Part shown: piece by piece, positions 2,311 to 27,683 of the stretch
How positions within the stretch are numbered: position 1 is the first letter of the stretch
Layout: every line of letters starts with the position of its first letter
From: a virus
Length of the DNA stretch: 64,000 nt
Virus record (IMG/VR): IMGVR_UViG_3300009314_000009
Coordinates: 3,981-67,980 of that record
Reading direction: 5' to 3' (one strand)
The notes under the pieces: generated by a model
Seen by the model: only the letters and a program-made list of their open reading frames with translations
Databases searched by the model: none
Told to the model about the DNA's origin: nothing
Translations under genes and position numbers: made by a program

Positions 2311-2355
2311 TCAAAACAAGTCATCCCGTCACAAGGTAACAGGGCTTCAGGGTTG

Positions 2356-5432: not shown

Positions 5433-5713
5433 CCTCTTTTATTTTTATGATTTTCAATTTCAATTGCACGTTCCACAGCTGGGATACATTCTGTTACATC
5501 ATTTACAGCTGAACCTTTTCCTCTGATTCCAGCACACAACAGCTTTTTAATCGCATGTTGTACTGGTGGATTAGTCACGTTAAATGCTTCTAAAACACTG
5601 TAAACATCCACATTATTTAATGTTTTGCCTTCAGTGTTTCTGATGGTTCTCAGGTATTTATTCCCTGATTTTAAACCTTTTTCAACTTTAGGGGTTTTTC
5701 TCGTTCTGCTCAT
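5429..5713 (-). CDS. Conserved phage protein, DUF3310-related
   Basis: VDVYSVLEAFNVTNPPVQHAIKKLLCAGIRGKG pattern. Confidence 0.6.
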   Translation of the reverse strand: MSRTRKTPKVEKGLKSGNKYLRTIRNTEGKTLNNVDVYSVLEAFNVTNPPVQHAIKKLLCAGIRGKGSAVNDVTECIPAVERAIEIENHKNKRG

Positions 5714-6594
5714 CTTTTTTCTCCTGTTAAAGGGTCCCGGCCCTCAGTTATTGCTGTTAATATTTCCATACCTTCTTGTGCTTTTTGCTTAGTTACATTC
5801 ACATTGTTATTCTGTGTCATGTTAATAGACAAGTTGGTATCATGCCACATACCAGCTATTCTACCAAGCAATTCAATAGCTTTTAGTTTATCGGGTAAAT
5901 GTATTTTATTCTGTTCAGCAAAGTCACAAATCACTTTACCGTCAATTTTATCAACAGGAAAAACTTTTATTTTTTTCTCTAATTTCTGGATAACACGTCT
6001 TTGTCTTTCAGGTATTAGATCCCAAGGCAACAAATCACCTTCACTATCATAAAAAGATGTTACATCAGTCAAAATCAAATCTGTCAAATATTCTATACAA
6101 ATAGGGAGTACTTCACTTTCAAAAATCTTGATTTGGAGCAAATTTAGCTGGCGAATGGCATTTCTGATTAATTTTGACCTTAACAAAATAGAAGCTTTTG
6201 TAAATGCTTCGCGGTCGGGAGTGTTTGAACCCCCATATACTTTTCTCCAAGAGGCTGTTTTATTGCGCGTACTGTGGAATTCATGAACAAAAGCTCTGTG
6301 ATTGGGGTCAACCAATTGATCAACCAATAAACTATCGGCTCCTTCAGGAATATCTATTGGTTCCAAATCATCAGTAGTCACCGGATTATCAATAATTTCA
6401 AAATCCGGGCTGTCCATATCTTGATTTTGAGCTTTCTGCAATTCCCAATCAATTTTTTTGCCCGGGGGGTTCTTTTCCCACATCCATAATGTTTTTTTCG
6501 ACACACCGTACTTCTTTGCAATCTCTTTTTTAGGCAATAAACCCAATTTAATCTCAGCCAGAGCTTTGAGAATATGTTCTTTTGAATGAGCCAT
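5710..6594 (-). CDS. terS: Terminase small subunit with N-terminal HTH
   Basis: EIAKKYGVSKKTLWMW helix-turn-helix; DVTSFYDSEGDLLPWDLIP and LPDKLKAIELLGRIAGMW typical of TerS; start moved to MAHSKEH. Confidence 0.75.
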   Translation of the reverse strand: MAHSKEHILKALAEIKLGLLPKKEIAKKYGVSKKTLWMWEKNPPGKKIDWELQKAQNQDMDSPDFEIIDNPVTTDDLEPIDIPEGADSLLVDQLVDPNHRAFVHEFHSTRNKTASWRKVYGGSNTPDREAFTKASILLRSKLIRNAIRQLNLLQIKIFESEVLPICIEYLTDLILTDVTSFYDSEGDLLPWDLIPERQRRVIQKLEKKIKVFPVDKIDGKVICDFAEQNKIHLPDKLKAIELLGRIAGMWHDTNLSINMTQNNNVNVTKQKAQEGMEILTAITEGRDPLTGEKR

Positions 6595-7635: not shown

Positions 7636-9054
7636 TTAATCTTCAAAACGACCTATCTCAGTTTCATTTAAAAATTTACTGTCAATATACCAAAGTCCTA
7701 AACCTAAAGCATGTAAAACCACTGCTTCACTTGTGTTTTCAGTTCCGTCATCTCTTTCAATGCCTTCAAATAATTTAACCCGGGAATAGCAAGCAGCTTT
7801 CTCTTTCTCTCCCATAGACAGCATTATCATTTTACCAACGTTAGGGATCTTTTTATAAGAGCCCCCAAGCCCTCCTATGCCAAATTTTTTACCATTATAC
7901 GCGTCACGATTCCCTTGCGTAGGTGCGAACACACAAACATCAAGTTCTTGTGCCCAACCAGCTAAATCTACCCATGTTTGTTCCTCATCTTTATTTTCAT
8001 TACTGTAGCCCCCAGCAGAACGGTGTTTCATTACATCGGGGTTGTCTACTATTATAACATCAGGAACAAAATTCAATTCTTTTTCCAACTGTTGAGTTTT
8101 AGTTTTAAGCATTGAAACTGTAGCTGTTCCCCGGGGGAATGTTACTGTTTTGATTCGGCCCCTATTCTGTAAACGAAGGGCATGAGCTCTTTTCTTTATT
8201 CTTTCAGAGTCCGTTATCATCTGTTCATCTTTGATTTCTATTTCATCATAGTAAATGCTTCCGTCATCTTCAAAATGGGGCAGCTTATAGGTACCTGGTT
8301 CTTTCGGCATAGTGTTTATACTTTGCCAGGTTCTCCGTGTAAATTGCCTTTTAGCTATTTCTAAATTAAAATAGAGAATGTTTAAACCTAAACTCAAACA
8401 AAAAGCCTGTACGAATATAGCAAACCAACTTTTACCTGCTTTACTTCCAGCAACCAATCCTACAAGATCACCCCGGAGCCACCAACCCAAAATGTATCCA
8501 AGGACCCCGGGAAGTTTAAACAATCTTTCTTCTTCAAAATTAAATGAATCACTAGTTTCTTCATGATTAATAAAAGGGTCATAAACATCACATTCGGTTT
8601 TTTCTACCCTTTTGAACTTAGTTAAAATTTCCTCAGCATATTTCAAATCTTTATTCTTAACAGCTTTTTTCATTTCTTCATTCATTTCGGAAAAAGCACG
8701 CCAATTAAAATAATTAATTATGTTTTCTGAATTATGTTGAGTATTATTTACTTTAAAGTTTTCAGAATCCTCATCAATGTTTTCTAACAAAGTCTGTATA
8801 TTTTTAGCTTCATCTTCATCAATTTCATCTTTATACTTTACAAATATACTTGTTATGTCTTTACCTGGAGCTTTGCCCGTAGTATCATAGTATTCTATTA
8901 TCCATTTGAAAAGGTATTCAGCATATTTGTTACTTGCCAACTCCGGTTTTAATATGGAACGGCAATTGGATAAAAGATTATCATTAACAATTAATTGATA
9001 AATGAATAATCTTTCTTCATCAAATTGAGAACCATCATCACGTTCTGTTATCAA
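7636..9054 (-). CDS. Replicative DnaB/gp41-like helicase
   Basis: Walker A AGSKAGKS, YFNLE, PDVIIVD, APTQGNR. Confidence 0.85.
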   Translation of the reverse strand: MITERDDGSQFDEERLFIYQLIVNDNLLSNCRSILKPELASNKYAEYLFKWIIEYYDTTGKAPGKDITSIFVKYKDEIDEDEAKNIQTLLENIDEDSENFKVNNTQHNSENIINYFNWRAFSEMNEEMKKAVKNKDLKYAEEILTKFKRVEKTECDVYDPFINHEETSDSFNFEEERLFKLPGVLGYILGWWLRGDLVGLVAGSKAGKSWFAIFVQAFCLSLGLNILYFNLEIAKRQFTRRTWQSINTMPKEPGTYKLPHFEDDGSIYYDEIEIKDEQMITDSERIKKRAHALRLQNRGRIKTVTFPRGTATVSMLKTKTQQLEKELNFVPDVIIVDNPDVMKHRSAGGYSNENKDEEQTWVDLAGWAQELDVCVFAPTQGNRDAYNGKKFGIGGLGGSYKKIPNVGKMIMLSMGEKEKAACYSRVKLFEGIERDDGTENTSEAVVLHALGLGLWYIDSKFLNETEIGRFED

Positions 9055-10811
9055 AACATACCACCTTCAGGTTTTTGGGGAGCTCCAGCATATTTGTTAA
9101 ATAAATTTAAAAGCAAATCATTATCATCGCTCACTTCTTTCCCTTCTACAATCTGGTCAACCATCTCCCGTTTAATATCCCAGCTTTCCATAATATCCAT
9201 ATCAACGGTACCTGCAGCCGGTAAGAAAAAAGAACCAACATTGTGTTCTTGTCCAGGCCTTAATAATCTATCTTCAGCCTGATCACTTTCCATAGGACTT
9301 CTGCTTATTTCTGTAAAGCAACAAGTATCACAAATATGTTGCATACCATCTAAACCAGTTCCACCTGATTGGATGTTGGCATCAAAAAATAAGCATTCAG
9401 GGTCCTCTAAAAATCTTTTGAAAGCTGCCTGTTTTTTCTTATTGGACATACCTCCATAATACATTACACTTTCTTTTTTATAACATTCATGTATGTATTC
9501 TACAACGGCCCTATGCCAACTAAATATTACTAATTTTTTCCCCGGGTTAATTTCTTTATAATTATCAATCCATTCAATAACAGATTTCTTTTTAACAGCA
9601 AAAGCACTACTCATCAAACTTTTTATAGCGTTTTGTAATTCAAAAGCTTTCGTGCGGTCTATGTCTTTATGTTCTTCTTTCCAAATAGCAATTTCTTTAT
9701 TCCAAGCAGCCTGATCTATTTCCATAGGGACTACAACGCGGGTTTTTCCAGGGAGCTCTTTTAACACGTCTGCTTTACGATACCTGATCATTACATTTTT
9801 AACGGCTCTGTGTAATGCTTTCGGATCTTTACAACCAGGTTGCTCGTGTTCCCCATAACCATTAGCTTCAATGTTACAATATTTATCTTGGAATCTTTTA
9901 AGTTTTGGAAATCGGTCTTTATCCACTAGATGTAAAGGCAACCAAAATTGACTTGGTTTCGTTTTGATAGGTGTTCCCGAAAGAGGTATAAAATTGGGAA
10001 TTGATTCAGCAATTTCTTTCAAGGCTTTGCCCCTCATTGATTCTATGTTATTACAGAATTGAATTTCATCCCCAATTGAAGTTTTAAAACCAGCCCGTTT
10101 TATAAAATGGAACCAAGAATTAGGTTGAACAACTTTTACTTTTTTAGGTTGAAGAACTCCATATTTTTTATGATACTTTGTTTCAGTTTTAGTAAAAGCC
10201 AATACATCCCAATTCACTACATAGGAAATGTCTTGTTCAAGTGGGTACCCTTTTTGACCGTCTAATATTTTAACAGGTCTTCCAACCCACTCTTTCCAAT
10301 ATTCTGCCCATTGAAGTTTAAGGTTAGCAGGGCACATTATAATAGCTGGTTGATGTTCTCTTCGCATGTGGCAAAATAAAGCTGCTATAACAGATTTACC
10401 TAAAGCCATATCTAAACCAAGTATACCACGACCACCGCGCCAAACCAAAAATTGAAGGCATTCATATTGATAATCCCAAGGCTTCAAACCGTTGACCCCG
10501 GCTATTTCACCTAAATCTATTTGCAACCAGGGTTTGCCTTCAATATTATCATCAAATTCAGGCCCATCACCTTCTATCTCAAAAGCATATAAAGGTGTGT
10601 CAATTAATTCACGGTTTTCTGGTATGTCAGGACATTCCCAAAAATAACCATCTGGATCCCATCTCCATTTTAGATTGGTTCCAGATGGACGTAATTTTTC
10701 ATTTTTGTTTCTTCTTCTAATATCATCAACCATTCCCCCGTCATAAGGAGAAAACAGTTGGAGCATTCCATCAACTTCCCGTGCATATCTGTCATTCAAA
10801 TCAATCGGCAT
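9051..10811 (-). CDS. SNF2-family (HARP/SMARCAL1-like) helicase
   Basis: DMALGKS, DEIQ, LSGTP, GTGLD, QAEDRLLRPGQ. Confidence 0.88.
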   Translation of the reverse strand: MPIDLNDRYAREVDGMLQLFSPYDGGMVDDIRRRNKNEKLRPSGTNLKWRWDPDGYFWECPDIPENRELIDTPLYAFEIEGDGPEFDDNIEGKPWLQIDLGEIAGVNGLKPWDYQYECLQFLVWRGGRGILGLDMALGKSVIAALFCHMRREHQPAIIMCPANLKLQWAEYWKEWVGRPVKILDGQKGYPLEQDISYVVNWDVLAFTKTETKYHKKYGVLQPKKVKVVQPNSWFHFIKRAGFKTSIGDEIQFCNNIESMRGKALKEIAESIPNFIPLSGTPIKTKPSQFWLPLHLVDKDRFPKLKRFQDKYCNIEANGYGEHEQPGCKDPKALHRAVKNVMIRYRKADVLKELPGKTRVVVPMEIDQAAWNKEIAIWKEEHKDIDRTKAFELQNAIKSLMSSAFAVKKKSVIEWIDNYKEINPGKKLVIFSWHRAVVEYIHECYKKESVMYYGGMSNKKKQAAFKRFLEDPECLFFDANIQSGGTGLDGMQHICDTCCFTEISRSPMESDQAEDRLLRPGQEHNVGSFFLPAAGTVDMDIMESWDIKREMVDQIVEGKEVSDDNDLLLNLFNKYAGAPQKPEGGMF

Positions 10812-11118
10812 CTAATCCTTTATACATCAAAATCAATCTTTGTTGGGCTGCTTCTATTTTATTATAATAAGTTTCAACAGTTTTCTGTTTTGCTTTTTCT
10901 TCCGATAATTTATTCAATTCTTCATTATACACATAACGCACTAAATTGGCTGATTCTGTATCATTAAACTTTTGGCAGTCTTCTATTAATGTTTTCATGT
11001 ATGTTGTGTCTTGTTCTAGTTCAAACACAGAAGCTGACACAGAATTTAAATCAGATCCAATTGAACCCCGTTTAGTATTCAACCAATTGATATGATTAAT
11101 TATTTCATCTTTATTCAT
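10801..11118 (-). CDS. Coiled-coil hypothetical protein
   Basis: ORF track; overlaps both neighbours. Confidence 0.6.
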   Translation of the reverse strand: MNKDEIINHINWLNTKRGSIGSDLNSVSASVFELEQDTTYMKTLIEDCQKFNDTESANLVRYVYNEELNKLSEEKAKQKTVETYYNKIEAAQQRLILMYKGLDAD

Positions 11119-11740
11119 CTTCTACCTGCTTCATGTTTTCAAAAATCAAAAAATAACAATGATATTTTCTCGCGTGAATTTGATTTTTTTGATTAGGTGA
11201 AACCATTCGGCTTTTTGCTAACAATATAAACATATCTTTCAAGTAAAAATTCAAATTTTCAGCCTGATTTATTATTTTTACATGACTCCAATATTGCTTC
11301 CTAGACGAAACTACATCTTGGCATTTCACTATTAATTTACCTTTTTGCTTTAAAACTCTGGAAAATTCCTCTAAACATTCATTATACCAAAATAATAGAT
11401 CTTTCATTGATGGGAATTCACCAAATCTGTTTGCAATTAATCCTTGAGATTCTTTTCTACGGCCCCCTATAAAAGGGGGATCGAACATTAATCTTTCTAT
11501 AGAATTATTTTCAAGATATTCCAATTTATTGGCGTTCGATTTTATTACATCAAATCTTTGAGGGAATAAATCTGATTTAAAAACAGGCTCTTCCACACAA
11601 CTTCTTTTGTAAAAAGAACCTATACTAAAAGTAGGGTCACAATCAATTCTTTTACCTTCTAAATGTAAACTAATTATGTTTCTTATCATTTCGCCTTCAT
11701 CATATCCTATTGATTTTATAGGATCAAAAAATAAACTCAT
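11111..11740 (-). CDS. Amino-type (N6-A/N4-C) DNA methyltransferase
   Basis: DPTFSIGSF SAM motif, MFDPPF catalytic motif, RVLKQKGKLIVKCQD. Confidence 0.82.
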   Translation of the reverse strand: MSLFFDPIKSIGYDEGEMIRNIISLHLEGKRIDCDPTFSIGSFYKRSCVEEPVFKSDLFPQRFDVIKSNANKLEYLENNSIERLMFDPPFIGGRRKESQGLIANRFGEFPSMKDLLFWYNECLEEFSRVLKQKGKLIVKCQDVVSSRKQYWSHVKIINQAENLNFYLKDMFILLAKSRMVSPNQKNQIHARKYHCYFLIFENMKQVEDE

Positions 11741-14299: not shown

Positions 14300-14914
14300 C
14301 TACAATTTATTATACGAATAACAAAGTGCTACTGGGTCCTGTTCTGCGTCAAATTTTTCATAAATAAAATAACGCAAATCTCCAAGAGCTCTTTGGAGTC
14401 TCTTTTTGTCCCAGCCCCATTCGCTAACTATGTTGAGTAAGTTATCAATAGTGAGCCGCAATTGACGACCTAAAGCTGTTACAAGGTTCCCCGATACTAT
14501 AACACTGTATATTTTTTTAGCATCTTCTGACAGCTCCGAATAGGCTATATTCAAATCTATGTTTTCTGCGTTGTCAAAAGCTTCCCCGCGATCTTCCTGG
14601 CTTGCGTGACCATCATGGAGTCCAGATCCTGAGTCTTTACTGCGGTCATCCCTTACCAATTTGAATTTATATGCCTTATCTTGAAATTTATACCAGTAAC
14701 GGTAATGTAATTTTTTCAAGTGGGTCCAAAGAACAGTTCCAAAATTAGCACCTTTTTCTGGATCAAAAACTTCCAAAGCTTCGTAAAAAATTAAAGAGCC
14801 CTCTTGGAAAAGATCTTCATATTGATCGGCTGGTGCTTTCAATGTATGTATGGCTTTATGTATCATATTTTTATAACATTTGCCGCCATATGTATATGGT
14901 TTCTGTTTATTCAC
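14300..14914 (-). CDS. Phage RNA polymerase sigma factor (sigma70 region 2)
   Basis: YEDLFQEGSLIFYEALEVFDPEKGANFGT; GGAGG RBS before the GTG at 14914. Confidence 0.75.
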   Translation of the reverse strand: MNKQKPYTYGGKCYKNMIHKAIHTLKAPADQYEDLFQEGSLIFYEALEVFDPEKGANFGTVLWTHLKKLHYRYWYKFQDKAYKFKLVRDDRSKDSGSGLHDGHASQEDRGEAFDNAENIDLNIAYSELSEDAKKIYSVIVSGNLVTALGRQLRLTIDNLLNIVSEWGWDKKRLQRALGDLRYFIYEKFDAEQDPVALCYSYNKL

Positions 14915-15110
14915 TAGAACCTCCACAATCAGTACAAAGATCACTTACGAGGTACGGTCCATTTTCTGCAAATACGAGGTGCGGTCCATTTTCTGATTTG
15001 CAACAATCACAGATTTCTTCACCGCAACAATCGCAAAACTTTATAGAACCTGGTGTAACTTCAGATCCACAACCACTACAGAATTCATTTTTGTCTATTT
15101 GTACGTCCAT
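14907..15110 (-). CDS. Small Cys-rich Zn-binding protein
   Basis: Four CxxC pairs; AGGAGG RBS before the ATG at 15110. Confidence 0.65.
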   Translation of the reverse strand: MDVQIDKNEFCSGCGSEVTPGSIKFCDCCGEEICDCCKSENGPHLVFAENGPYLVSDLCTDCGGSSE

Positions 15111-15873: not shown

Positions 15874-15918
15874 TTATTATAAATAGTTGGGAGATTACTT
15901 TGTAATGTTTTATAATAA
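15874..15918. promoter_or_regulatory. Back-to-back class B promoters at the strand switch
   Basis: AACTATTTATAATAA (minus, 15874-15888) and TTTTATAATAA (plus, 15908-15918). Confidence 0.65.
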
Positions 15919-15971: not shown

Positions 15972-17033
15972 ATGAGAGAATTTAAAACCCCTATAAGTTT
16001 ACGTGGCGATCATTATTATTGCCCACTCAGTCTCCAAATAGATAGTTATTGGAACTGTGAACCGGGTTGCATCTCTTGTTATCTTCGGAAAATGAACAGA
16101 ACCTGGGGACAAGAACAACGTGTAACTGATCCTGAAAATGTAAGGAAAAAACTCACCAGTGGTATGAACAGCAAAAACCCAAAGACACCATTGGCTCACG
16201 CCCTCAAAAATAAAAATACTATAAGATTGGGCAATAAAACTGATCCTTTTCAAAACATAGAAAAAACAAAAAGGATTAGCAGCAGAATAATTGGAGTTAT
16301 GGAAGATCTTGATTGGAGTTATGTTGTACAAACTAAATATGTTGCTAATGTAGTGCCTGTTTTCCATAAAATAAAAGTAGGTACATTAATGCCTATAGTT
16401 TCCCCGGGGCTTGAGATGGATTGGGAATTGTTTGAAAAATGTAAAACAACCAACCCTATAGACCGTTTGAGACTTCTTAACGTGTTTAACCGTGAACACG
16501 ATATTCAAGGTGGTGTTAATGGTGAGCCTTTTATTCCTGGGTATCATTCTGAAAGAGATTTTGAACAAACTTTAAAATTATTGAAAACATATAATATTAA
16601 ATCATACAACACTTATCATCTTCATTTTAATGATTTAGTTGCTAAAAATTTCCATGAAGCTGGTTTAGATATTGAATTAATATGGAAAATGAACCAAGAT
16701 GAGAATTGGAAACCTATTCTACAAAATCTTATTGACCTTGCTAAAAAATATGATATAATATTGGGTTGTCCGGATTTCGTCAACAGTGGTTTGTACCAAG
16801 AAAAAACAAATACTTGTTGCGGTTTAAATGTACCTAACCCAACCAAGTTCACTATGATTGAATGGAAGAAAAAGATGCTGTGGGAAGGTAAAACAGCACA
16901 ACAGGCCATAGATGAAACTTGGGATGGGGTAGGGGATAGGCAAGAAGCTCTTGACATTTTAACTAATAAACAAAAAGATATGTATACAATTAAAGATATT
17001 GAAATCGAAACAAAGAAAGGTGGTCTGTTTTGA
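15972..17033 (+). CDS. Radical SAM enzyme A, spore photoproduct lyase-like
   Basis: DSYWNCEPGCISCY (CxxxCxxC), RLGNKTDPFQ, QTK, EPFIPG. Confidence 0.88.
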   Translation: MREFKTPISLRGDHYYCPLSLQIDSYWNCEPGCISCYLRKMNRTWGQEQRVTDPENVRKKLTSGMNSKNPKTPLAHALKNKNTIRLGNKTDPFQNIEKTKRISSRIIGVMEDLDWSYVVQTKYVANVVPVFHKIKVGTLMPIVSPGLEMDWELFEKCKTTNPIDRLRLLNVFNREHDIQGGVNGEPFIPGYHSERDFEQTLKLLKTYNIKSYNTYHLHFNDLVAKNFHEAGLDIELIWKMNQDENWKPILQNLIDLAKKYDIILGCPDFVNSGLYQEKTNTCCGLNVPNPTKFTMIEWKKKMLWEGKTAQQAIDETWDGVGDRQEALDILTNKQKDMYTIKDIEIETKKGGLF

Positions 17034-17656
17034 AAAATGATAAAAACTACAAAGATGTGCTGAAAGTTTCCAAAAGAGGCTCAGATTGGAATTCACAAAA
17101 AGCAATTTTTGAAAAAATATTCAAAGCAATCAAAGATGGAAGTGGAGCTCTTGGTACATTTTTAGATCTCACTTGTGGTGTTGGTGCAATATTTAAAAAA
17201 CTTGTAGATGATTTTCAGTTCAAAAAATGGATTGGGCTTGAAATAAGCGAATGTTGTTTGGAAGAATGGGAACTTTTAAAAGAAAAATACAAAGATCAAG
17301 TTGAAATTGAAACTTTATTAATGAGTTGTTTTGATTATCGTAGTGAAGATCCAATACAAATTGCTTATTTATCTTTCAACACTTTCTCGTTGCACAAAAA
17401 ACACGAAGAAACTTGGAGCAAAATTGAAACATTTTTAAAAAATAATGATATTGAACATTTTGTATTCGCTGACACTGCTTCAATGTGGTTCAAAATACGT
17501 GGTCACGGTGGTCCATATGATGTTGAAGATTGGGATGAGTACGTTGAGAAAATGGAAGATACCTTATCAGAAATAACAAATCACTCGTATGAACTACAAT
17601 TAGCTGAAAGATTCAGTTCTAAAAAATGTGCTATCTTTCATTTCAAAAAGGTTTAA
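17030..17656 (+). CDS. Class I SAM-dependent methyltransferase-fold protein
   Basis: FLDLTCGVG motif I, WIGLEIS motif II. Confidence 0.7.
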   Translation: MKNDKNYKDVLKVSKRGSDWNSQKAIFEKIFKAIKDGSGALGTFLDLTCGVGAIFKKLVDDFQFKKWIGLEISECCLEEWELLKEKYKDQVEIETLLMSCFDYRSEDPIQIAYLSFNTFSLHKKHEETWSKIETFLKNNDIEHFVFADTASMWFKIRGHGGPYDVEDWDEYVEKMEDTLSEITNHSYELQLAERFSSKKCAIFHFKKV

Positions 17657-17657
17657 T

Positions 17658-19061
17658 ATGAATTACTGGGATTACAGAAAAAAAGCTATTAAACTTGCCC
17701 CCCGCATGACTACTCTTTCAGGTAAAGGGGAAGGGTTCAAAATGAAAGAAAAGGGCAGGAAAAGCAATTATCACCAATACTCTATTAAAGAAAGAACCAA
17801 TGTGAAAATGGAACGTTTGTTAGATACTGAAACAATTGGTTCTTTCGCTGAAGTCTCTCTCCGTGCCCAAAGCTGTCCCATGCCTCTTAACATAGATGTA
17901 TGGGACGGCTTGACTTGTCCAATGGGTTGTAAATACTGTTTTGCTGATTATTTCAGACACAGCCTTTACACTTCTTTTTTTGACAACGGGAAAACTTTAG
18001 GGTTAAGAAGTTGCAACGCAAATGATTATAAAAATCGGCTTGATGAATTATTCAAGCACCGTGGTGAAAAAACTTCTTGGGATAAGAATGAATTGGTCAA
18101 CGCTATACGGCTTCAAATACCTATTCGGTTGGGAATACGTTTTGAAGATTTCCCTCCAATAGAACGTGAAAAAGGTGTTGCATTACAATTACTGGATTAT
18201 TTGGCTGATAACAAATACCCATTAATGATCAACACCAAATCAGTTATCCCGGGTGAAGATAAATATTTGAATGCTCTTGCCAGAAATCCGGCAGGGACTG
18301 CGATTCACTACACTCTAATAAGTAGTGATGACACGTTTCTCCGGAAAATAGAGCCCGGGGCACCTACGTTCAAACAACGGCTCAATTCAATGAAAAGACT
18401 GGCTGAAGCCGGTGTAAGGGTCGTGGCTCGTATAGAACCATGGATGTTTTTATTAAATGATAGCAAGGATATGGTTGATCATTACATAGGAGAACTCAAA
18501 GCTGCTGGGGTCCGGCATATGACTTTTGACAGTTACAGCTACTCAGCAAATTCAAAGGGGCTTGAAACTAATTTCAGAAATTTAGGCATTGATTTCAGAA
18601 GGATGTTTTTGATTAGCTCCGATAGCCAGTGGCTCAGCAGCTTACTTTTAGGTAAATTTATCCAATATTTCCGGGATAATGGGATGGAGTGTTCCACTTT
18701 TGACCAAGGCAATGCCCCGGATAATGACGACATGATTTGTTGTTCTGTGGGGGATAAGTTTGAAGATTATGGATTCAATTGGGGGTCCGGAGTAACCGCA
18801 ATAAAATTTATACAATCACGGGGAATGACCCCAACTACATGGGGGCACTTTATTAAATGGATTGAGGAAAAAGGTGGATTTTTATCCAAACAACTCCATG
18901 ATGATGTCAAATTGCTTTGGAATGGGCGAGGTGATGGAGCGTGGCCTATTTATTGGAGTTGGGGATTGGAAGCTATTGGTCAAAACTCTGAAGGCACTAT
19001 TTGGAGATTTAACCGTGAACATGATTTTAGAGAAGAATACTGGAGGCAATTATGCGATTAA
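17658..19061 (+). CDS. Radical SAM enzyme B, SPL-like paralogue
   Basis: TCPMGCKYCF (CxxxCxxC), RLGIRFEDF, INTKS, IEPGAPTFKQRL, RIEPW. Confidence 0.9.
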   Translation: MNYWDYRKKAIKLAPRMTTLSGKGEGFKMKEKGRKSNYHQYSIKERTNVKMERLLDTETIGSFAEVSLRAQSCPMPLNIDVWDGLTCPMGCKYCFADYFRHSLYTSFFDNGKTLGLRSCNANDYKNRLDELFKHRGEKTSWDKNELVNAIRLQIPIRLGIRFEDFPPIEREKGVALQLLDYLADNKYPLMINTKSVIPGEDKYLNALARNPAGTAIHYTLISSDDTFLRKIEPGAPTFKQRLNSMKRLAEAGVRVVARIEPWMFLLNDSKDMVDHYIGELKAAGVRHMTFDSYSYSANSKGLETNFRNLGIDFRRMFLISSDSQWLSSLLLGKFIQYFRDNGMECSTFDQGNAPDNDDMICCSVGDKFEDYGFNWGSGVTAIKFIQSRGMTPTTWGHFIKWIEEKGGFLSKQLHDDVKLLWNGRGDGAWPIYWSWGLEAIGQNSEGTIWRFNREHDFREEYWRQLCD

Positions 19062-19744
19062 CCGAAACAACTGAATGCGTTGTAGCTCAAGCGGTAGCCT
19101 TGACGCAAAACGGTAAAATGAAAAACACAGTTCATATCAAAGACAAAGATATTTTAATTATGAATTTGGATGACACTATTGTAACACGTAATAAAGTTAC
19201 GCAAGAATTCAATAATGAAATAAGCTTTTTTGCCAATGATTATGAAAGTCCTGAATTAGAGGTTCGGAACGGTCAAGTTGTATTTAAAAAATGTGTAGGT
19301 GGTTACAAACGCGAAAAAATTTGTCCAGCTCCTAAAAACAAATACATAGATGTGAGGGAAATACTGGACAATCATGAACCTGTTAAAGATTATCCGGTAA
19401 CATTAAAAGATGATGTGCTGTCTTTATTAGAAGATGGTTTGAGTCATATTGAATTCCACAATGTTGATGGTTATCTCAAAATACTTCAAAAAGACATTTA
19501 TTCAGGCCAAAAAATAGAAGTTGAGAAAATACAAGAGGGTATGTTTCCAGAAACCTGCAAGATGCCAGAAAATTTGCCTATTGGATTGAGAACAGTTGAT
19601 TTTAAAGCTCTTTTCAGTTTTCAATCGCAGTTGACTTTTTACTTCCAGGATAAAAATTACATCTATTTTAAAAATGGTGAAGGTGATTTTGAAGGAATTA
19701 TATCAACTTGCATTTATGATGAAATAGGGTACATTGAAAAATAA
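19052..19744 (+). CDS. Putative two-domain sliding clamp (gp45/PCNA-like)
   Basis: 230 aa, repeated helix/strand pattern, N-terminus MRLTETT reminiscent of T4 gp45 MKLSKDT; fold is inferred. Confidence 0.45.
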   Translation: MRLTETTECVVAQAVALTQNGKMKNTVHIKDKDILIMNLDDTIVTRNKVTQEFNNEISFFANDYESPELEVRNGQVVFKKCVGGYKREKICPAPKNKYIDVREILDNHEPVKDYPVTLKDDVLSLLEDGLSHIEFHNVDGYLKILQKDIYSGQKIEVEKIQEGMFPETCKMPENLPIGLRTVDFKALFSFQSQLTFYFQDKNYIYFKNGEGDFEGIISTCIYDEIGYIEK

Positions 19745-19762
19745 ACAACGGGAGAATGTGGT

Positions 19763-19924
19763 ATGGGCGGTAAAAGTAGAAAAACGGGAGGGGTTAGCAA
19801 ATCCCTTATAGACCGGATAAAAGCCGGTAAAGCTTCGAAAGATCGAAAAGACACCAGTAAACCTGTTGCTAAAAAATCGTGTGGAGCGCAGCCTAAAAAC
19901 CCTAAAAAAGGTGGGTTGTTTTGA
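19763..19924 (+). CDS. 53-aa Lys/Gly-rich peptide ending KKGGLF (not in ORF track)
   Basis: GGGAG RBS; MGGKSRKTGGVSKSLIDRIKAGKASKDRKDTSKPVAKKSCGAQPKNPKKGGLF fills the gap between neighbours. Confidence 0.75.
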   Translation: MGGKSRKTGGVSKSLIDRIKAGKASKDRKDTSKPVAKKSCGAQPKNPKKGGLF

Positions 19925-19926
19925 AT

Positions 19927-20583
19927 ATGATTTATCCCGAATATTCAGAAATGTTGGAGCAATTGGAAAAAGAACCAAACTTTTTCCTATCTTCCGAATA
20001 TTGGGAAAGAGCCGGTTGGTATGACAGTAGTTGTGATGAAGTTTCTTTTGTTGGAGCTCCTTTGTTGGAAAGATTTTTTGATCACCAGTTTATTTATGAA
20101 CCAATAAATCCTGATAATATTGATGAATTTTTATCAGGAAAACAAATGAAATCAGTTAGAAAGCAATATAATAAATATCGCGATATTTTGACACCTTTCT
20201 ATAATACTCAAGATGACCCAGAAGATCTTTTGATGAAGTGGGTTGGTGAGCGCGATTTATATGACCCCGATGTGTTTGTGAATTACGTTTTTCATGGTGA
20301 TAACCGTATATTTATTAAAAATCAAAAAGGTGAATTGGTAGCTCTTTTAATTTGGGATTACAATTACAAATTCATAAATTTTCGTTATTGTCTAGTAGAT
20401 CCTGATTACAAAGGTTTATCTGATTATTGCAGAGTACTGTTCAGACAATTAATGTATTTACGATTCCCAACCAAATTAATAAATGATGGGGGGAGTTTAG
20501 GCAGTCCAACCTTGTATACGTACAAGCAAAAGCTTAAACCCTTAAAAGTTGATCTTTTATACTACAAATCAAATAAGGATTAA
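19927..20583 (+). CDS. DUF2156/MprF C-terminal-like GNAT-fold (aminoacyl-tRNA-dependent) transferase
   Basis: DHQFIY...[16 protein letters not shown] and DPDYKGL...[21 protein letters not shown] parallel the DUF2156 motifs DYxY...LxGKK...RNHxNxF and INREEDLGxxGLRKAKxSYxP. Confidence 0.65.
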
Positions 20584-20585
20584 AC

Positions 20586-21404
20586 ATGCGTGAATATTTG
20601 CGATTGTTGAAAAAAATCAAAAACGAAGGGATTCAAAAAGGTGACCGTACCGGTACTGGTACAATAAGCCTTTTTGGAGAACAAATGCGATTTGACCTTT
20701 CAAAAGGTTTTCCTTTAGTGACAACTAAAAAGACGTTTCTGAAGGGTATTATCCATGAATTAATATGGTTGCTTTCCGGAGATACTAATATTAAATACCT
20801 TACGGATAACGGAGTTCATATTTGGGATGAATGGGCTGATGAAAATGGTGATCTAGGTCCTGTTTATGGACACCAATGGCGTAAATGGGGATCATTTGAT
20901 TCAAAACACCCAGAGTATTTGGCCAGTGAAGGGCTTGATCAAATAACTAATGTTATTGAACGCATTAAAACAAATCCTAATTGCCGTAGATTGATCGTAA
21001 CTGCTTGGAATCCTGTTGAAATCTATCAAATGGCTTTACCACCTTGCCACATGTTCTTCCAATTTTATGTAGTAAACGGAAAACTCAGTTGCCAAATGTA
21101 CCAACGTTCAGCTGATATGTTCTTGGGGGTGCCTTTTAATATTGCGGCTTACGCCTTATTGACAATGATGGTTGCCCAAGTCTGTGATTTAGAACCCGGT
21201 GAATTTATTCACGTGATAGGTGATGCTCATGTTTATAACAATCATTTGGAACAGATTGATGAACAATTAAAACGGGAGCCCCGTGAATTACCTACAATGT
21301 TAATGAATCGAAAGGTGAAAAACATTTTTGATTTCAAATATGAAGATTTTTCTTTGATTGGGTACAACCCACATCCAGCTATTAAAGGTAAAGTTTCTGT
21401 ATAA
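20586..21404 (+). CDS. thyA: Thymidylate synthase
   Basis: [35 protein letters not shown]. Confidence 0.98.
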
Positions 21405-21431: not shown

Positions 21432-22559
21432 ATGATTATACAAAAAGAAATCCTTGCCAATGCCATTAAAAGAATTATGCCAGGCATAGGCAAAGATAAA
21501 ACAGCCCTACAGGGTATGGACACCATTATAATTGATAAAGGTGGTCTTCATACTTTTAATGGGACCATTTGTGCCACGGTACCTATGGATACAGAAGGTA
21601 TCAAAGGAGCAATAAAAGGCGAGAAATTTTTCAAGCTTGTCCAAAAATACAAAGCTGAAGAAGTAACCCTTGAGCATACAGAAAAAGGTTTATCTATCAA
21701 ATGTGGTAAAAATAAATCAACTCTGGCTTGGGTGACTGACGTAAAAACTCCGGAATTTATAGAAGAACTTCACAATGTTAAGCCGTCAGTTGAGCTGCCT
21801 GACGATTTTCAAGAGGCTTTACGTTTGTGTGATATACCTACCAACCCAAAAGATTATGCTGGGACCTTTGTTCAAGGAAACTTAATGATGAGTACTGATC
21901 AAAATCGTTCCAACATTTTTACCTTTAAAGAAGGTATTAAAGATGAAGATGGTGAGGATGCTATGTTTTGGGTTAGTCTTCAAAATGGGAATCAACTGTT
22001 AAAACTTGATGACAAATTCACTCATTACACTACCAAAGAAAAATTGAAAGATGGTGCTGAAAGAAAAGGTGTTTGGATACATTTCTTGACTTCTGAAGGT
22101 ACTGTTTTCAGTTGTACTCTTCTTAACATGGAAACCGTTGAGCCTATTATCAGCCATATGAAACGTTTTAATTCAATGGAAAAAGAAGATGGTGCTGTTG
22201 AAGGTACTTTGCCAGAAGGATTCAAAGAAGTTGTTCAACGTGTTGGATCTCTCAGTGCGCGTTCTGAATCAAAAGCTCTTGAATATGTAAAATTAACTTT
22301 TACGCAAGCAGCTTTAATAGTGAGTTCAGCAAGTAGTGCAGGAAGTTCTGTTGAAGAATTGGAATGGGATATTAAAGTGCCTGAAGATTCACAAGCCAGT
22401 TATTTATACCCAGTACCTTTTTTACTGGATATTTATAACAAAGCAAAAGATTTCTGGATGAAAGATATGTCTGGTGGCCAAGGTGTCAACATAACAACTT
22501 TGATATTTAATTCTGGTGGTTATAAACATCTGGTGAGTAATTTAACTGATCCAGATTAA
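21432..22559 (+). CDS. DNA polymerase sliding clamp, beta (DnaN)-like
   Basis: 375 aa, MIIQKEILANAIKRIMPGIG N-terminus, three-repeat layout, lies next to the polymerase. Confidence 0.7.
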   Translation: MIIQKEILANAIKRIMPGIGKDKTALQGMDTIIIDKGGLHTFNGTICATVPMDTEGIKGAIKGEKFFKLVQKYKAEEVTLEHTEKGLSIKCGKNKSTLAWVTDVKTPEFIEELHNVKPSVELPDDFQEALRLCDIPTNPKDYAGTFVQGNLMMSTDQNRSNIFTFKEGIKDEDGEDAMFWVSLQNGNQLLKLDDKFTHYTTKEKLKDGAERKGVWIHFLTSEGTVFSCTLLNMETVEPIISHMKRFNSMEKEDGAVEGTLPEGFKEVVQRVGSLSARSESKALEYVKLTFTQAALIVSSASSAGSSVEELEWDIKVPEDSQASYLYPVPFLLDIYNKAKDFWMKDMSGGQGVNITTLIFNSGGYKHLVSNLTDPD

Positions 22560-22652: not shown

Positions 22653-25250
22653 ATGTCTCTTTTTTCGGTCCCTTCTGACAATAAACCGACCAAAGGTAAA
22701 AAAGTCAAACAAGGTTGTGAGGGCTGTGATCTTCAATATATAGCTAGAAATCCCAAAATGCCAATATATGGAGAAGGGAAAAAAGAGATATTAATTGTAA
22801 CAGATACTCTTTCTGAGGATGATGATTTTGAAGGACACCCTTTAAGCGATGAATATGGCGATCTTCTAAAGTATGAATTAAGAAAATACAATGTACATTT
22901 ATTTAAAGATTGTTGGGTAACAAGTGCTATACGTTGTTCGTGTGAAGCAGCTAATAGTAATGATAAATTGATTGATCAATGTGGTAAACAAGTTTTAACT
23001 GATATACGCAAGTTAAAGCCTAAAGTTGTAATATTATTGGGAAGGGCTGCTGTAAAAGCAGTAATTAATTCAAGACTTACCGGCAGATTAGCTGGGACTG
23101 ATTACATAAGTTTTTATGGGGACATGATACCAGATCAACAACTAAAAACATATTTATGCCCAACTTACCATCCAAAAGAAATCAAAAAAACTGAAAGTAA
23201 ATATGATAAAAAACCTGACGTTATTTATTTAAAAAATTGGCGTGATAATTTAGAAGCAGCTTGTAAAAAAGCTACTGATAAAAAATATGAATTTCCTGAT
23301 TATGAAAAATTAAGAGAGAAAAAACGCATTATATGGGATGTAGATAGTGCAATTAAATTCCTTGAAACAATGAAAGATGTTTGGGAAAAAGGTCAGGAAG
23401 ATATAGCCCACGATTATGAAACAAGTGGTTTAAAAAATCAAGCTGCTGGTCATTTCATAGAATGTGTTTCTATTGCTGATAAACGTGAATCAGTTTGTAT
23501 GCCTTTCTTCCGGAAAAATAAAATATTTTGTAAAGCTTATGAAGCAATAATGGTTTCTAGAAAAATTGGAAAAGTAGCTCATAACAATTGTTATGAGGAT
23601 AGCTGGACATATAATAAGGCTCACCATGAAACCATGCCTAAATACAAAACTGCCGGTTGGAGGTGGGACACCTTATTGGGTTGGCACTGTATCCATAATC
23701 AAAAACCTACTGGACAAAAATATTTAGTTTATCGAAATTATGGCATAATAAATTATGATGAACATATTAGTAAATTTTTAGGATCAAATGATGAAGACAA
23801 CAAAAACTCTTTTAATACAGTACATAAAGCCCCAAAACAAGAGCTTTACGATTATTGCGCTGAAGATTCTCTATTTTGTTTTAAATTATACCAGGACCAA
23901 AAAGCTTGGTTTGAAAAACATCCACATCTTTTAGATGGTTTTTTATTCCTGCTTGAAGGTCAAATGTCTTTAAGCAGTTTACATATTAACGGACAAGGTT
24001 TTGATATTGAAAGAGCTATTGAAGCCAAAGTTTCATTAGAACAAGAAATTAAACAGAAAATACTTGAATTAAGAACTTCTGAATGGGGAGAAGGTTGGGA
24101 TGGCAAAACTGGAGGGGATAACGTATATAATCATATATACAAAACTTTAGGTTTGAAAAACATAGATGAGAAGAAAACTGGAGCTGGCAAAGATGCTCTT
24201 GATGAAGATGTTATGGAAAAAATGGATCATCCTTTTACTGATTCAATTCTAGAAATAAAGAAACTGGAAAAAGTTTTAAGTACTTACATGGAAGGGTACC
24301 TGCGCGAAACTGTTGACGGTTTTGTTCATTCTTTCTTCCGACTTTTGACCAAAACATTAAGAAGCAACAGTGATAGCCCTAATGCTCAGAATATACCCAA
24401 ACGAAATAAAAAAGTTAAAAAGATTTTACGCAGTTGTTTTGTTCCACGTCCTGACAGCAGAATTATGGAATGGGATTACAAAGCATTGGAAACTATAATA
24501 GCAGCTTGTAATTATCCAGACCCTAATTGGATTGAATATGTTTCAGATTTAAGTTCAGATATGCACTGGGATTGGACCTACAAAATGTTTGAATTTACTG
24601 ATGATTTTGTTGATATTTTAATTGAAGAAGACATCAAAGATGACATAAGAAGTTGGGTGAAAAATGGCGCGGTTTTCCCCGGCATATACGGTTCAAGTTA
24701 TGTAGCTATATCATCAAGCCTTTACAAAATAATGAAAAGAATACCAACTATGTGGGATTATTTTGGGGAAAAAGGTTGGCATGATTATAAGAAATTCAAA
24801 AATCACTTAAAGGCCATGTATGAATGGTATTGGACTGAATGGTTCCCAACTTATAAAGAACTGAGGGAGGAAGATTACAAAAAGTATTTAAAAGATGGTT
24901 ACACAGACACCTTAAATGGTTTCCGCTATCAAGGCCCTATGTCCTACACTGAATTTTGTAACTGGAAAACCCAGGGACCTGCTAGTCATATAAAATTATG
25001 GACTTTGAAAGAAACTGAAAAGGAAATCGAAGAAGAGCAAATGGAATCTAAACTAATATGTGAAGTTCATGACGCTATTGTGGGTGATGTAGTAAATGGA
25101 GAAGAAACGGAAATGAGCAGATTGATCAATCATATAGGTACTGTTTCAGTGAGAGAGCATTGGACATGGATAATAGTTCCCTTGGTGATTGATGGAGAGC
25201 AATCAAAAGTAAACGGCAACTGGGCAGAAATGGAGAAATTTAAATTATGA
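22653..25250 (+). CDS. polA: Family A DNA polymerase with N-terminal family-4 UDG-like domain and 3'-5' exonuclease
   Basis: CEGCDL...YHP UDG-like domain; DYETSG, AHN, YCAEDS exonuclease; motifs DYKALE, RSWVKNGAVFPGIYG, VHDA. Confidence 0.93.
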   Translation: MSLFSVPSDNKPTKGKKVKQGCEGCDLQYIARNPKMPIYGEGKKEILIVTDTLSEDDDFEGHPLSDEYGDLLKYELRKYNVHLFKDCWVTSAIRCSCEAANSNDKLIDQCGKQVLTDIRKLKPKVVILLGRAAVKAVINSRLTGRLAGTDYISFYGDMIPDQQLKTYLCPTYHPKEIKKTESKYDKKPDVIYLKNWRDNLEAACKKATDKKYEFPDYEKLREKKRIIWDVDSAIKFLETMKDVWEKGQEDIAHDYETSGLKNQAAGHFIECVSIADKRESVCMPFFRKNKIFCKAYEAIMVSRKIGKVAHNNCYEDSWTYNKAHHETMPKYKTAGWRWDTLLGWHCIHNQKPTGQKYLVYRNYGIINYDEHISKFLGSNDEDNKNSFNTVHKAPKQELYDYCAEDSLFCFKLYQDQKAWFEKHPHLLDGFLFLLEGQMSLSSLHINGQGFDIERAIEAKVSLEQEIKQKILELRTSEWGEGWDGKTGGDNVYNHIYKTLGLKNIDEKKTGAGKDALDEDVMEKMDHPFTDSILEIKKLEKVLSTYMEGYLRETVDGFVHSFFRLLTKTLRSNSDSPNAQNIPKRNKKVKKILRSCFVPRPDSRIMEWDYKALETIIAACNYPDPNWIEYVSDLSSDMHWDWTYKMFEFTDDFVDILIEEDIKDDIRSWVKNGAVFPGIYGSSYVAISSSLYKIMKRIPTMWDYFGEKGWHDYKKFKNHLKAMYEWYWTEWFPTYKELREEDYKKYLKDGYTDTLNGFRYQGPMSYTEFCNWKTQGPASHIKLWTLKETEKEIEEEQMESKLICEVHDAIVGDVVNGEETEMSRLINHIGTVSVREHWTWIIVPLVIDGEQSKVNGNWAEMEKFKL

Positions 25251-25753
25251 ATATCGTAAAATTTTTAAATAAAGAAGAGTTGGAAGAGCAAAAAGATAAA
25301 AGCGAACCACTTAAAAGATGGAAAAAGGCTGTTTTACCTAATAATGAATTAATTGAAGAATTCACACATCAAAATTTTAAATTCTTTTTGCGTAAATTCA
25401 AAGACCACACATATATGGTATATGAAAAAACATCAGGAATGTCAATAGGTACTTACCACAATGACAGGGAATCTTGTATGAAAACTCAAAAAGTTTTTAT
25501 TGATCAAAAAATCGAACAAGGTATTCTTCCGCAAACTGTAAAAAATAGAATTAAAGAACGGGGATTTATCAACGGGGATGAAAATGATTTACCTTTTTCT
25601 TTGGAAGAAGAAGAAAAAATTGAAGCTTCACAAACTGATCTTTTTATAATAAATAAAGAACAAAAGCCTTCCAATGAGAAAAAAGCTGAACAAACAGTAA
25701 AGGTGTTGACTAAAAAGTCTACAACACAGAGTACCGGTGGAGGGCTTTTCTGA
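25247..25753 (+). CDS. Hypothetical protein ending GGGLF
   Basis: ORF track. Confidence 0.7.
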   Translation: MNIVKFLNKEELEEQKDKSEPLKRWKKAVLPNNELIEEFTHQNFKFFLRKFKDHTYMVYEKTSGMSIGTYHNDRESCMKTQKVFIDQKIEQGILPQTVKNRIKERGFINGDENDLPFSLEEEEKIEASQTDLFIINKEQKPSNEKKAEQTVKVLTKKSTTQSTGGGLF

Positions 25754-26720: not shown

Positions 26721-27683
26721 ATGGCTGATTCATTCGGTTATCATAAAATGTTTCGCCCCGATGATTGGCGTGAAATAAGAGGAAATCAAGCTGCTGCTGA
26801 AAGTTTTCGACAATTGCTTGATAAAAAAGACGGCCCCCGGGTATACCTTATAACAGGCCCCAGTGGGTGTGGCAAAACAACAATGGCTCGTATAGCTGCT
26901 AATCACCTTGAATGTTCCGGTATGAATCTGAATGAATACAATGCTGCTAAAGATCGTGGTATTGATTTAGTACGTCATATTGAAGAGGAAGTAAGATTTG
27001 CTGTCCAAGGAGTTCGCTGCTGGTTACTTGACGAAGCTCACCGATTAACTACGCAAGCTCAGGAAGCTTTTTTGAAAACTTTGGAAGATGGTCCCAGCAC
27101 TGATTATTTCTTCATTTGTACGACAAATCCGGAAGTGTTTAAATCAACTTTCTTGCGACGTTGTACAAAGATAATAATAAAACCTTTAGACGATAGGGAT
27201 GTGGCCGATTTGCTGGAAGAAATAGTGGATGAAGAAAGGCTTGATGTATCAGATGAAGTTGTTGATAGAATTGTAGATGTTGCCCAAGGGTCCCCGGCTA
27301 TAGCTTTAAGTGCTTTACAAACTATAGCTGATTTGTCTGAAAAATTGGCTTTGGAAAAACTTAAAGATGACAGCAATTTGGCCGTTTTAGACACTCAATC
27401 TAAAGAAATGGGAGAGCTAATCAAAACAGTATTCTGGGGCAAAACCAGTATAAGTGCTGTTATGAAAATCATAGCCACTATGAAAAAAGGCGATAAGGAA
27501 AACCCAGAAAGCATTCGTTTGGCCTTAGTTAATTGTGCTGGCAATAATCTTTTAGCCGGTGGAAAAAATGTAACTGAACGAAGTTTAGAAGTGTTAGACC
27601 ATTTATGTGATGGAACATCATTTTATAATAAAAGCCAAGCCTGGGCTACACTGGTATATAAATTACATGAAGTATATTCTTAA
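26721..27683 (+). CDS. Clamp loader AAA+ ATPase (DnaX/RFC-like)
   Basis: FRPDDW, GPSGCGKTT, DEAHRLT, LKTLE, LRRC. Confidence 0.9.
   Translation: MADSFGYHKMFRPDDWREIRGNQAAAESFRQLLDKKDGPRVYLITGPSGCGKTTMARIAANHLECSGMNLNEYNAAKDRGIDLVRHIEEEVRFAVQGVRCWLLDEAHRLTTQAQEAFLKTLEDGPSTDYFFICTTNPEVFKSTFLRRCTKIIIKPLDDRDVADLLEEIVDEERLDVSDEVVDRIVDVAQGSPAIALSALQTIADLSEKLALEKLKDDSNLAVLDTQSKEMGELIKTVFWGKTSISAVMKIIATMKKGDKENPESIRLALVNCAGNNLLAGGKNVTERSLEVLDHLCDGTSFYNKSQAWATLVYKLHEVYS

Follow-up and report, generated by a model that had tools for sequence, protein, structure and literature searches.

Among the closest described relatives of the locus reported here is the pathway of Pseudomonas phage M6 to 5-(2-aminoethyl)-deoxyuridine (5-NedU), for which PMC8989533 describes a thymidylate synthase (TS)-like hydroxymethylase (gp58), a 5-hydroxymethyl-deoxyuridine (5-hmdU) DNA kinase (gp54), an amino acid:DNA transferase (the aGPT-Pplase gp51), gp53 and gp52. 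As described there, gp53, a radical S-adenosylmethionine (SAM) enzyme resembling spore photoproduct lyase (SPL), isomerises N-alpha-glycinylthymidine to C-alpha-glycinylthymidine in DNA, and gp52, a pyridoxal phosphate (PLP) enzyme, decarboxylates the latter in DNA to 5-(2-aminoethyl)uracil. The thymidine hypermodifications treated in PMC8989533 all start from 5-hydroxymethyl-uracil, which is later activated by the kinase and is made either before replication or by TET/JBP oxidation in DNA. Here we analysed a window of 64,000 nucleotides (positions 3,981 to 67,980 of the virus record IMGVR_UViG_3300009314_000009), in which an earlier note, made from the sequence alone, had proposed a new DNA hypermodification system of seven genes between positions 15972 and 21404. 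Five of these genes, encoding two radical-SAM proteins (rSAM1 and rSAM2), a protein modelled with a clamp fold (p230), a basic peptide (pep53) and a protein with a predicted aminoacyl-tRNA-dependent transferase fold (p220), form a conserved module in related loci. We put the probability at about 55% that this is a replisome-linked module by which the phage modifies bases of its own DNA post-replicatively and through a new entry step, the modification probably being an amino-acid-derived group.

A conserved module of five genes

The seven genes all lie on the plus strand, as follows.

15972..17033, plus strand: rSAM1, 353 amino acids (aa), radical-SAM enzyme of the SplB/PA0069-like clade with a CxxxCxxC motif, ending in KKGGLF
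17030..17656, plus strand: MT-like, 208 aa, class-I SAM-methyltransferase-like accessory, with a sub-threshold Pfam match
17658..19061, plus strand: rSAM2, 467 aa from the ATG at 17658, with an N-terminal extension and a match to PF04055; its reading frame opens with a GTG at 17628
19052..19744, plus strand: p230, two-domain clamp-fold protein of gp45/PCNA size, according to an AlphaFold2 (AF2) model and structure search
19763..19924, plus strand: pep53, 53-aa basic peptide with a conserved N-terminus and codon-level constraint
19927..20583, plus strand: p220, predicted aminoacyl-tRNA-dependent transferase fold of the DUF2156/LPG_synthase_C type; alternative TTG start at 19921
20586..21404, plus strand: ThyA, canonical thymidylate synthase (PF00303, 1.8e-124)

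All seven open reading frames (ORFs) of the earlier note are present, and neighbours either overlap or are separated by at most 18 nt. rSAM1 and MT-like overlap by 4 nt, rSAM2 follows 1 nt later when counted from the ATG at 17658, where the family alignment also starts, rSAM2 and p230 overlap by 10 nt, pep53 follows p230 after 18 nt, p220 begins 2 nt beyond pep53 (ATG 19927) or overlaps it by 4 nt (TTG 19921), and ThyA begins 2 nt after p220.

Related loci were gathered from viral, genome and metagenome collections, and their ORFs were scored with profiles built from the window proteins. The 90 loci bearing p220 (window included) formed 65 clusters at an identity of at least 95%, and all counts are anchored on p220. 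Where the sequence extends at least 1.2 kb upstream of p220 (44 clusters), both p230 and pep53 lie upstream in 42; given at least 3.5 kb, one or more rSAM genes occur in 30 of 32 clusters, and given at least 6.5 kb, two or more occur in 22 of 25. A DnaN-like clamp follows p220 in 41 of the 42 clusters with at least 1.2 kb downstream, and the position of the module is constant, between helicase/primase genes on one side and clamp, polymerase and clamp-loader genes on the other. A PLP-fold enzyme was found in 13 of 25 clusters and an MT-like gene in 5 of 25, while the two stand together in 1 of 25; ThyA lies near p220 in only 1 of the 90 loci, the window itself. On these cluster counts ThyA and MT-like are therefore excluded, and the conserved module consists of five genes: rSAM1, rSAM2, p230, pep53 and p220. 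The earlier note had named a lack of co-occurrence in related phages as a refuting condition, and this condition does not hold, since the genes are found together in many uncultured phages.

ThyA is a canonical enzyme, as had been claimed: it scores 458 bits against the ThyA equivalog NF002497 (cut-off 327) and is only 23% identical to M6 gp58, and a role as hydroxymethylase was dropped because the canonical cut-off is passed. It is a lineage-specific insertion and no part of the conserved module, although the earlier note had counted it in. A DNA-level search of the whole region returned matches to thyA only. MT-like, which had been taken for a SAM-binding member of the system, does have class I methyltransferases as its language-model neighbours (0.95-0.96), and a G-x-G motif is visible in its family alignment; its Pfam match is sub-threshold, however (Methyltransf_25, 9.4e-5, 23.5 bits against a gathering score of 27). 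It shows weak pairwise similarity to the genes in the same slot of loci L005, L009 and L012 (E 6e-5 to 7e-4), and is one of several swappable accessories outside the conserved module. L012 carries an aldo-keto reductase in addition to its MT-like gene. We dropped the idea of a simple exchange of the PLP enzyme for MT-like, since L005 has both.

In one relative, L013 (an 87%-complete record), rSAM, p230 and pep53 genes are missing, and the slot upstream of p220 and the clamp is occupied by a TAGT-family glycosyltransferase (4710-5855; PF20691, 5.4e-40), a type of enzyme that PMC13390438 describes as acting on modified DNA bases in T6-like phages. No TS-family gene was found in this record. A search of the records of L013 and L006 for Tet_JBP (PF12851) gave no match, but it is uninformative, as it gave none in the control genomes either. 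A 40-aa ORF of L013 (6973-7095), overlapping the start of p220, contains MGGSSCGTKK, faintly like the invariant start of pep53, and may derive from a peptide gene that has since been lost.

When p220 was searched with tblastn against 50,697 deposited phage records, no match was found, and rSAM2 gave only two weak partial matches in the same records (27-29% identity over 23-31% of the query), one of which, L091 with a 278-aa ORF at the match, was dropped. Since a scan of genome contigs with rSAM2 returned only two contigs of metagenome-assembled genomes, no isolate host is known. We found no paper describing the gene set, though the supplements of PMC8989533, which cover clusters of gp52/gp53 homologs, may hold related clusters, and literature searches on DUF1848, DUF5131, Rv2578c, PA0069 and COG1533 yielded incidental mentions only. 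The metagenome survey in PMC8989533 was anchored on the kinase, and would therefore have missed this module.

The proteins of the module

The two CxxxCxxC proteins of the earlier note do share further motifs. In rSAM1 the CxxxCxxC lies at C29, C33 and C36, and C17, C266 and C282-C283 are likewise invariant; an invariant CxxxCxxC, a CP motif preceding it and, towards the C-terminal end, a CC pair are common to both proteins, and hhalign identifies them as paralogs over 337 columns (prob 99, E 3.6e-18). As rSAM2 passes the Pfam Radical_SAM model PF04055 (31.2 bits against a cut-off of 29.5), rSAM1 is counted in the radical SAM superfamily as its paralog. Among named families, rSAM1 matches the PA0069 radical-SAM family of NCBIfam at 2.8e-9 and rSAM2 matches the Rv2578c and PA0069 families at about 1e-13, the matches of the two proteins spanning 2.8e-9 to 3e-13 and all lying far below the cut-offs, with scores of 36-50 bits against 360-430; both proteins also match phrog_13321 weakly. 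In the ESM Atlas rSAM2 falls into mostly viral clusters, and its structural neighbours are clusters in which rSAM is combined with DUF1848 or with SPL. The pair is similar to SPL and to the SplB-like proteins of COG1533 (PA0069, Rv2578c) in the CxxxCxxC core, in the best named matches, in the SPL- and DUF1848-bearing structural neighbours and in a link to DNA, but differs from them in lying below every family cut-off, in the additional conserved cysteine motifs (CP and CC) and in its biosynthetic-looking operon.

A third radical-SAM paralog of about 486 aa occurs between p220 and the clamp in several relatives (L010:11024-12484, L012:11010-12464, L021:3560-5035 and others). Its match to PA0069/Rv2578c (E 2.7e-16) is closer than those of rSAM1 and rSAM2, and the copy of L010 touches the SPL model TIGR03886 at 1.8e-3. 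The rSAM2 ortholog of L015 (6643-8439, 598 aa) has an insertion of about 130 aa exactly within CxxxCxxC, which ends in VHN followed by a cysteine and looks intein-like from its sequence; the NCBIfam model for an intein-containing Rv2578c family is touched by rSAM2 at 6.6e-11.

The clamp-sized protein of the earlier note, p230, is predicted to have the two-domain DNA-clamp fold of gp45 and PCNA. Its AF2 model is of good quality (pLDDT 88.3, pTM 0.85), and the top 38 rows of a VIA structure search with it (Z 8.7-14.9) are all sliding clamps or processivity factors, the best being T4 gp45 (6drt_A, Z 14.9, 202 residues aligned, root-mean-square deviation 3.5). The best Foldseek match in BFVD is a cyanophage sliding clamp (TM 0.67/0.70), and Foldseek against the PDB agrees. 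p230 shares fold and size with gp45, but the phage has it in addition to a replicative clamp of the DnaN-like kind with a clamp loader. Furthermore, the p230 family has 23 invariant positions among 26 sequences, many of them polar, which is unusual for clamps. The family alignment A1 leaves out 6 of 29 matches, namely the window copy (P0001) and five of partial or odd length (P0007, P0011, P0013, P0017 and P0020). A predicted complex of p230 with pep53 scored 0.01 (mark 0.32), which counts neither for nor against binding, and a 206-aa protein upstream of p220 in L006 has no detectable likeness to p230 (hhalign prob 3).

The peptide pep53 consists of an invariant N-terminus, MGGKSRK.G..S..LI, a lysine-rich linker and a C-terminal motif of glycine followed by hydrophobic residues (KKGGLF in the window). 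Its GGKSRK is invariant in 70 loci, where it is written by 48 distinct 18-nt strings that use both codon boxes of serine and of arginine; pep53 is a real conserved gene under strong constraint at the protein level, which confirms the 53-aa basic peptide noted earlier. The G-hydrophobic tail, a motif defined after inspection of the data, occurs in 52 of 55 distinct complete pep53 peptides against 6.9 ± 2.3 in shuffled tails. In the window, four proteins end in GG[LM]F, namely rSAM1, pep53, an SNF2 helicase and a 168-aa protein, two of them replication proteins, and similar tails are found in 10 of 23 distinct rSAM1 C-termini, compared with 2 of 46 clamps and 5 of 63 p220 proteins. Clients of clamps typically carry short hydrophobic C-terminal docking tails, as do clients of T4 gp45 and PCNA, and the shared tail of these four proteins resembles such a docking motif in sequence.

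For p220, the claim of a DUF2156-like protein holds by both family and fold. Its AF2 model (pLDDT 90.9, pTM 0.88) has as top Foldseek matches 2hqy, L-PGS/A-PGS/MprF, Sbb17, FemX, ATE1 and L/F-transferase, with the DUF2156/aaPGS/MprF chains first. PF09924 is matched by 24 of 58 family members (best 8e-7), while the window copy has no Pfam match; the alignment, A3, comprises the window protein, 56 of the 150 p220 matches listed and one locus protein. A profile search gave 348 representative clusters. We classify p220, with its predicted tandem-GNAT fold, as DUF2156/LPG_synthase_C type, and its use of an aminoacyl-tRNA donor is predicted from this fold. It shares fold and family matches with DUF2156/LPG_synthase_C proteins, FemX, L/F-transferase, ATE1 and Sbb17, but differs from them in being soluble, short, phage-encoded and fixed beside a sliding-clamp gene. 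The window copy (218-220 aa) is about 30-50 aa shorter than its relatives (about 250-270 aa) owing to a deletion within the N-terminal sub-domain (alignment columns of about 44-90); its model falls below pLDDT 50 at residues 37-46, and all 10 invariant family residues are retained.

Relation to the M6 pathway and competing explanations

The PLP enzyme of the relatives is 47% identical to M6 gp52 over the full length (E 7e-84), the lysine of SFSK, the proposed PLP holder, being aligned. With gp52 as query, whole records of relatives gave a match in 4 of 4 cases at 38-48% identity, whereas the same search found no gp52-type enzyme in the complete genome of the window phage. The rSAM1 family profile matches M6 gp53 with prob 96.3 and E 1.9e-9 over 252 columns, and rSAM2 with prob 81 and E 1.2e-5. 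By these comparisons rSAM1 and rSAM2 are homologs of gp53, a statement of homology that does not imply the same reaction.

For the entry enzymes of the M6 route no match was found. The kinase gp54 had no blastp match at E <= 1e-3 in the window or the ORFs of the loci fetched by then, nor did the phage's complete genome or the records of four relatives give one at E <= 0.01, and the transferase gp51 likewise had none in the locus ORFs and window (E <= 1e-3), the own genome or the four records. The gp52 search, positive in 4 of 4 relatives, served as control, but gp51 and gp54 were single M6 queries with no positive control of their own, by which divergent analogues could be missed. None of 5 related records yielded a TS-family gene, while the control was positive in 10 of 14 genomes. 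In Pfam, scans of 47 proteins (41 from the window and 6 from the rest of the genome) revealed no hypermodification starter, aGPT-Pplase or deazaguanine gene. These searches are all in line with the earlier note, which had recognised no gene of the 5-hmdU or deazaguanine routes. The module resembles the M6 pathway in the gp52 ortholog of relatives, in its gp53-homologous radical-SAM proteins, in clustering with replication genes and in swappable finishing enzymes such as are seen in the metagenomic clusters described in PMC8989533. It differs in having no match to the hydroxymethylase, kinase or aGPT-Pplase, in having two to three radical-SAM paralogs instead of one, in the added clamp-fold protein, invariant peptide and aminoacyl-tRNA-type transferase, and, in the window phage, in the absence of a PLP enzyme altogether.

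The gp52 ortholog in relatives, the gp53-homologous radical-SAM proteins and the TAGT glycosyltransferase in the slot of L013 all argue for the role in DNA hypermodification that had been suggested. As to its novelty, no match to a 5-hmdU entry enzyme was found, but the system is not wholly unprecedented, since M6 already has an SPL-like radical-SAM and a PLP enzyme that act on DNA.

From the observed gene content, folds, homologies and co-occurrence, we infer which substrate and target base are used, in what order the steps run and how the enzymes dock, as well as any aminoacylation of DNA. The two SPL/gp53-like radical-SAM enzymes would carry out radical chemistry on a normal base in DNA, for which the C5-methyl of thymine is the best candidate and, given the chemistry of SPL and gp53, the natural guess; this step would replace the route through dUMP hydroxymethylase, 5-hmdU DNA kinase and amino acid:DNA transferase. 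p220 would supply or extend the amino-acid part from aminoacyl-tRNA, and the enzymes would be held at newly made DNA by clamp-type contacts involving p230 and the G-hydrophobic tails of rSAM1 and pep53. The adduct would then be trimmed by a finishing cassette that can be swapped, a task that in most relatives would fall to the gp52-type PLP decarboxylase and in the window phage to the MT-like protein only. Because the decarboxylase is missing here and only MT-like is present, the final group probably keeps its carboxylate or is methylated, and the product of the window phage should differ from that of most relatives.

Several points weigh against this proposal. We infer the modification of DNA bases itself from the genes, and what ties the module most strongly to DNA chemistry comes from its relatives, as the phage's own complete genome has no gp52-like enzyme. 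rSAM2 resembles gp53 only weakly (21% identity, BLASTP E 9e-5), divergent analogues of gp51 and gp54 might have escaped the searches, and among solved PDB chains, SPL included, the rSAM proteins found matches at chance level only, in single-sequence and in profile searches. The structural matches of p220 have lipid, peptide, protein or small-molecule acceptors, and we know of no case in which this transferase fold has a DNA acceptor. Furthermore, p220 is kept beside the clamp in two lineages that have no rSAM, p230 or pep53 (L006/L007 and L013), and it may have a separate job. Finally, the N-terminus of pep53 is absolutely invariant, which would suit a substrate of an enzyme just as well as an adaptor.

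This last point leads to another explanation, which we regard as unlikely: the radical-SAM enzymes, p220 (adding an amino acid from aminoacyl-tRNA in the style of L/F-transferase or FemX) and the finishing enzyme would tailor the N-terminus of pep53, and the product, a modified basic peptide, would dock on a clamp by its C-terminal motif, for example to regulate or hijack replication. Peptide tailoring is common among radical-SAM enzymes, GGKSRK has stayed invariant despite its many codings, pep53 and p220 abut or overlap throughout, and the structural neighbours of p220 all act on amines or hydroxyls of the acceptors listed above. However, rSAM1 and rSAM2 belong to the SplB/gp53-like clade and not to the SPASM or RRE types that modify peptides, no SPASM/twitch or RRE family of Pfam being found on either at E <= 0.1. 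The DNA adduct of the relatives' PLP ortholog has a free amino-acid head, which is absent on an internal peptide residue, p220 persists without pep53 in the two lineages mentioned, and such maturation leaves no role for the clamp-fold protein. In PEARL-type biosynthesis on scaffold peptides, a small peptide likewise stands beside a tRNA-dependent transferase and tailoring enzymes, but the conserved end of pep53 is the N-terminus and not the C-terminus, and no LanB-like PEARL enzyme turned up, though no test was aimed at it. Mom of phage Mu offers a parallel of another kind, as a GNAT-fold enzyme involved in DNA base modification; no Mom homolog turned up here, again with no test aimed at it.

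A more elaborate form of the DNA modification proposal, which we consider quite improbable, would make pep53 a clamp-tethered carrier of an amino acid. p220 would load the amino acid (glycine, as a guess) from aminoacyl-tRNA onto the Gly-Gly N-terminus, the radical-SAM enzymes would forge a C-C bond to the thymine methyl in new DNA, the peptide would ride the p230 or DnaN-like ring by its C-terminal motif, and the finishing enzyme would release and trim the adduct. If true, it would be the first case of a canonical DNA base undergoing direct C-H functionalisation that is fed by tRNA and mediated by a carrier peptide.

Repair of DNA seems to us very unlikely. Here clamp-tethered radical-SAM enzymes would work under anoxic conditions on phage DNA that is being replicated, where they would reverse or process lesions such as thymine dimers, crosslinks or photoproduct-like lesions, and clamp docking is indeed typical of repair enzymes. 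The best named matches, PA0069 and Rv2578c, belong to the COG1533 'DNA repair photolyase' group, and PMC8565304 describes COG1533 SplB-type genes as SOS-regulated in several phyla. Rv2578c has a LexA site. On the other hand, repair has no need for a PLP decarboxylase, an aminoacyl-tRNA transferase, an invariant peptide or a swappable methyltransferase/reductase cassette; no SPL model is among the NCBIfam and Pfam matches of the window proteins at E <= 0.1, and the nearest characterised homolog, M6 gp53, installs a modification. Chemistry on the nucleotide pool, tRNA or other RNA, in which p220 would bind tRNA as substrate and the genes would sit among replication genes only through co-expression, has the least to recommend it: the fold of p220 is built for binding aminoacyl-tRNA, ThyA as a nucleotide-pool enzyme is inserted here, and radical-SAM enzymes modify tRNA and rRNA and make 7-deazapurine precursors, but ThyA is confined to the window phage, the phage has no tRNA gene, the clamp-fold protein and clamp-type tails point to DNA, and the homologs gp52 and gp53 act on polymer DNA.

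Genomic setting and significance

The virus record is 67,980 bases long, has direct terminal repeats and is estimated to be 100% complete; the window covers 64,000 of these bases, and the source virus is a tailed phage. A crAss-like identity was dropped, the tail and sheath arm and the gene set being incompatible with it. A replication arm occupies about 16-36 kb of the plus strand, with further replication genes on the minus strand (7.6-12.6 kb), and the tail and head arm runs on the minus strand from 37 kb. Features around the module are the following.

15887..15916, plus strand: promoter-like site TTGGGA-18-TATAAT, matching the consensus at 10 of 12 positions, within the divergent gap of 120 nt before rSAM1
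21432..22559, plus strand: DnaN-like replicative clamp, 375 aa (phrog_947 processivity factor, 6.8e-14)
22653..25250, plus strand: UDG-domain/family A DNA polymerase (PF00476, 5.6e-31; PF03167, 1.8e-9)
25247..25753, plus strand: 168-aa protein ending in GGGLF, with no Pfam, PHROG or NCBIfam match
26721..27683, plus strand: clamp loader (phrog_5846, 1.6e-54)
9051..10811, minus strand: SNF2-family helicase ending in PEGGMF, the tail motif

The single promoter proposed for the operon has a counterpart in the site at 15887-15916, but the consensus scan as a whole gave 58 sites against 46.6 ± 6.1 in shuffles, which is not above the shuffles, so the site is a lead only. The phage encodes three sigma-70-like proteins: one in the window (14300-14944, minus strand) matches region 2 only, and two in the 4 kb outside it have full regions 2 and 4 (L093:754-1533 and 1593-2384, minus strand). 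In many relatives two neighbouring ORFs make up the family A polymerase (L009, L013, L021, L041, L046, L052, L060, L066, L067, L069 and L085), and in L010-L012 a 1084-aa protein with a weak PolA profile match (E about 1e-17 to 1e-19) takes its place. Genes for N6/N4 DNA methyltransferases lie in or around the module in the window (11111-11740, minus strand) and in relatives (L002:9392-10078, L006:6301-7698 and L011:7665-8348), which suggests that at least some A or C sites are open to ordinary methylation.

Compared with the M6 pathway, the module keeps the late M6-type enzymes (gp53-like radical SAM and, in relatives, a gp52-like PLP enzyme), while a second rSAM paralog, p220, an invariant peptide and a spare clamp stand in place of the early ones, to which no match was found; the window phage adds a complete genome that has no PLP enzyme and whose operon includes a canonical ThyA. 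As the module is widespread in uncultured phages and absent from the 50,697 deposited phage records, it has escaped experiment. If it modifies DNA, it would show that a normal base can be functionalised in duplex DNA by a new route, with a new use of aminoacyl-tRNA and a clamp-coupled delivery of modification enzymes, and it would be a pointer to new base modifications blocking both restriction and CRISPR nucleases.

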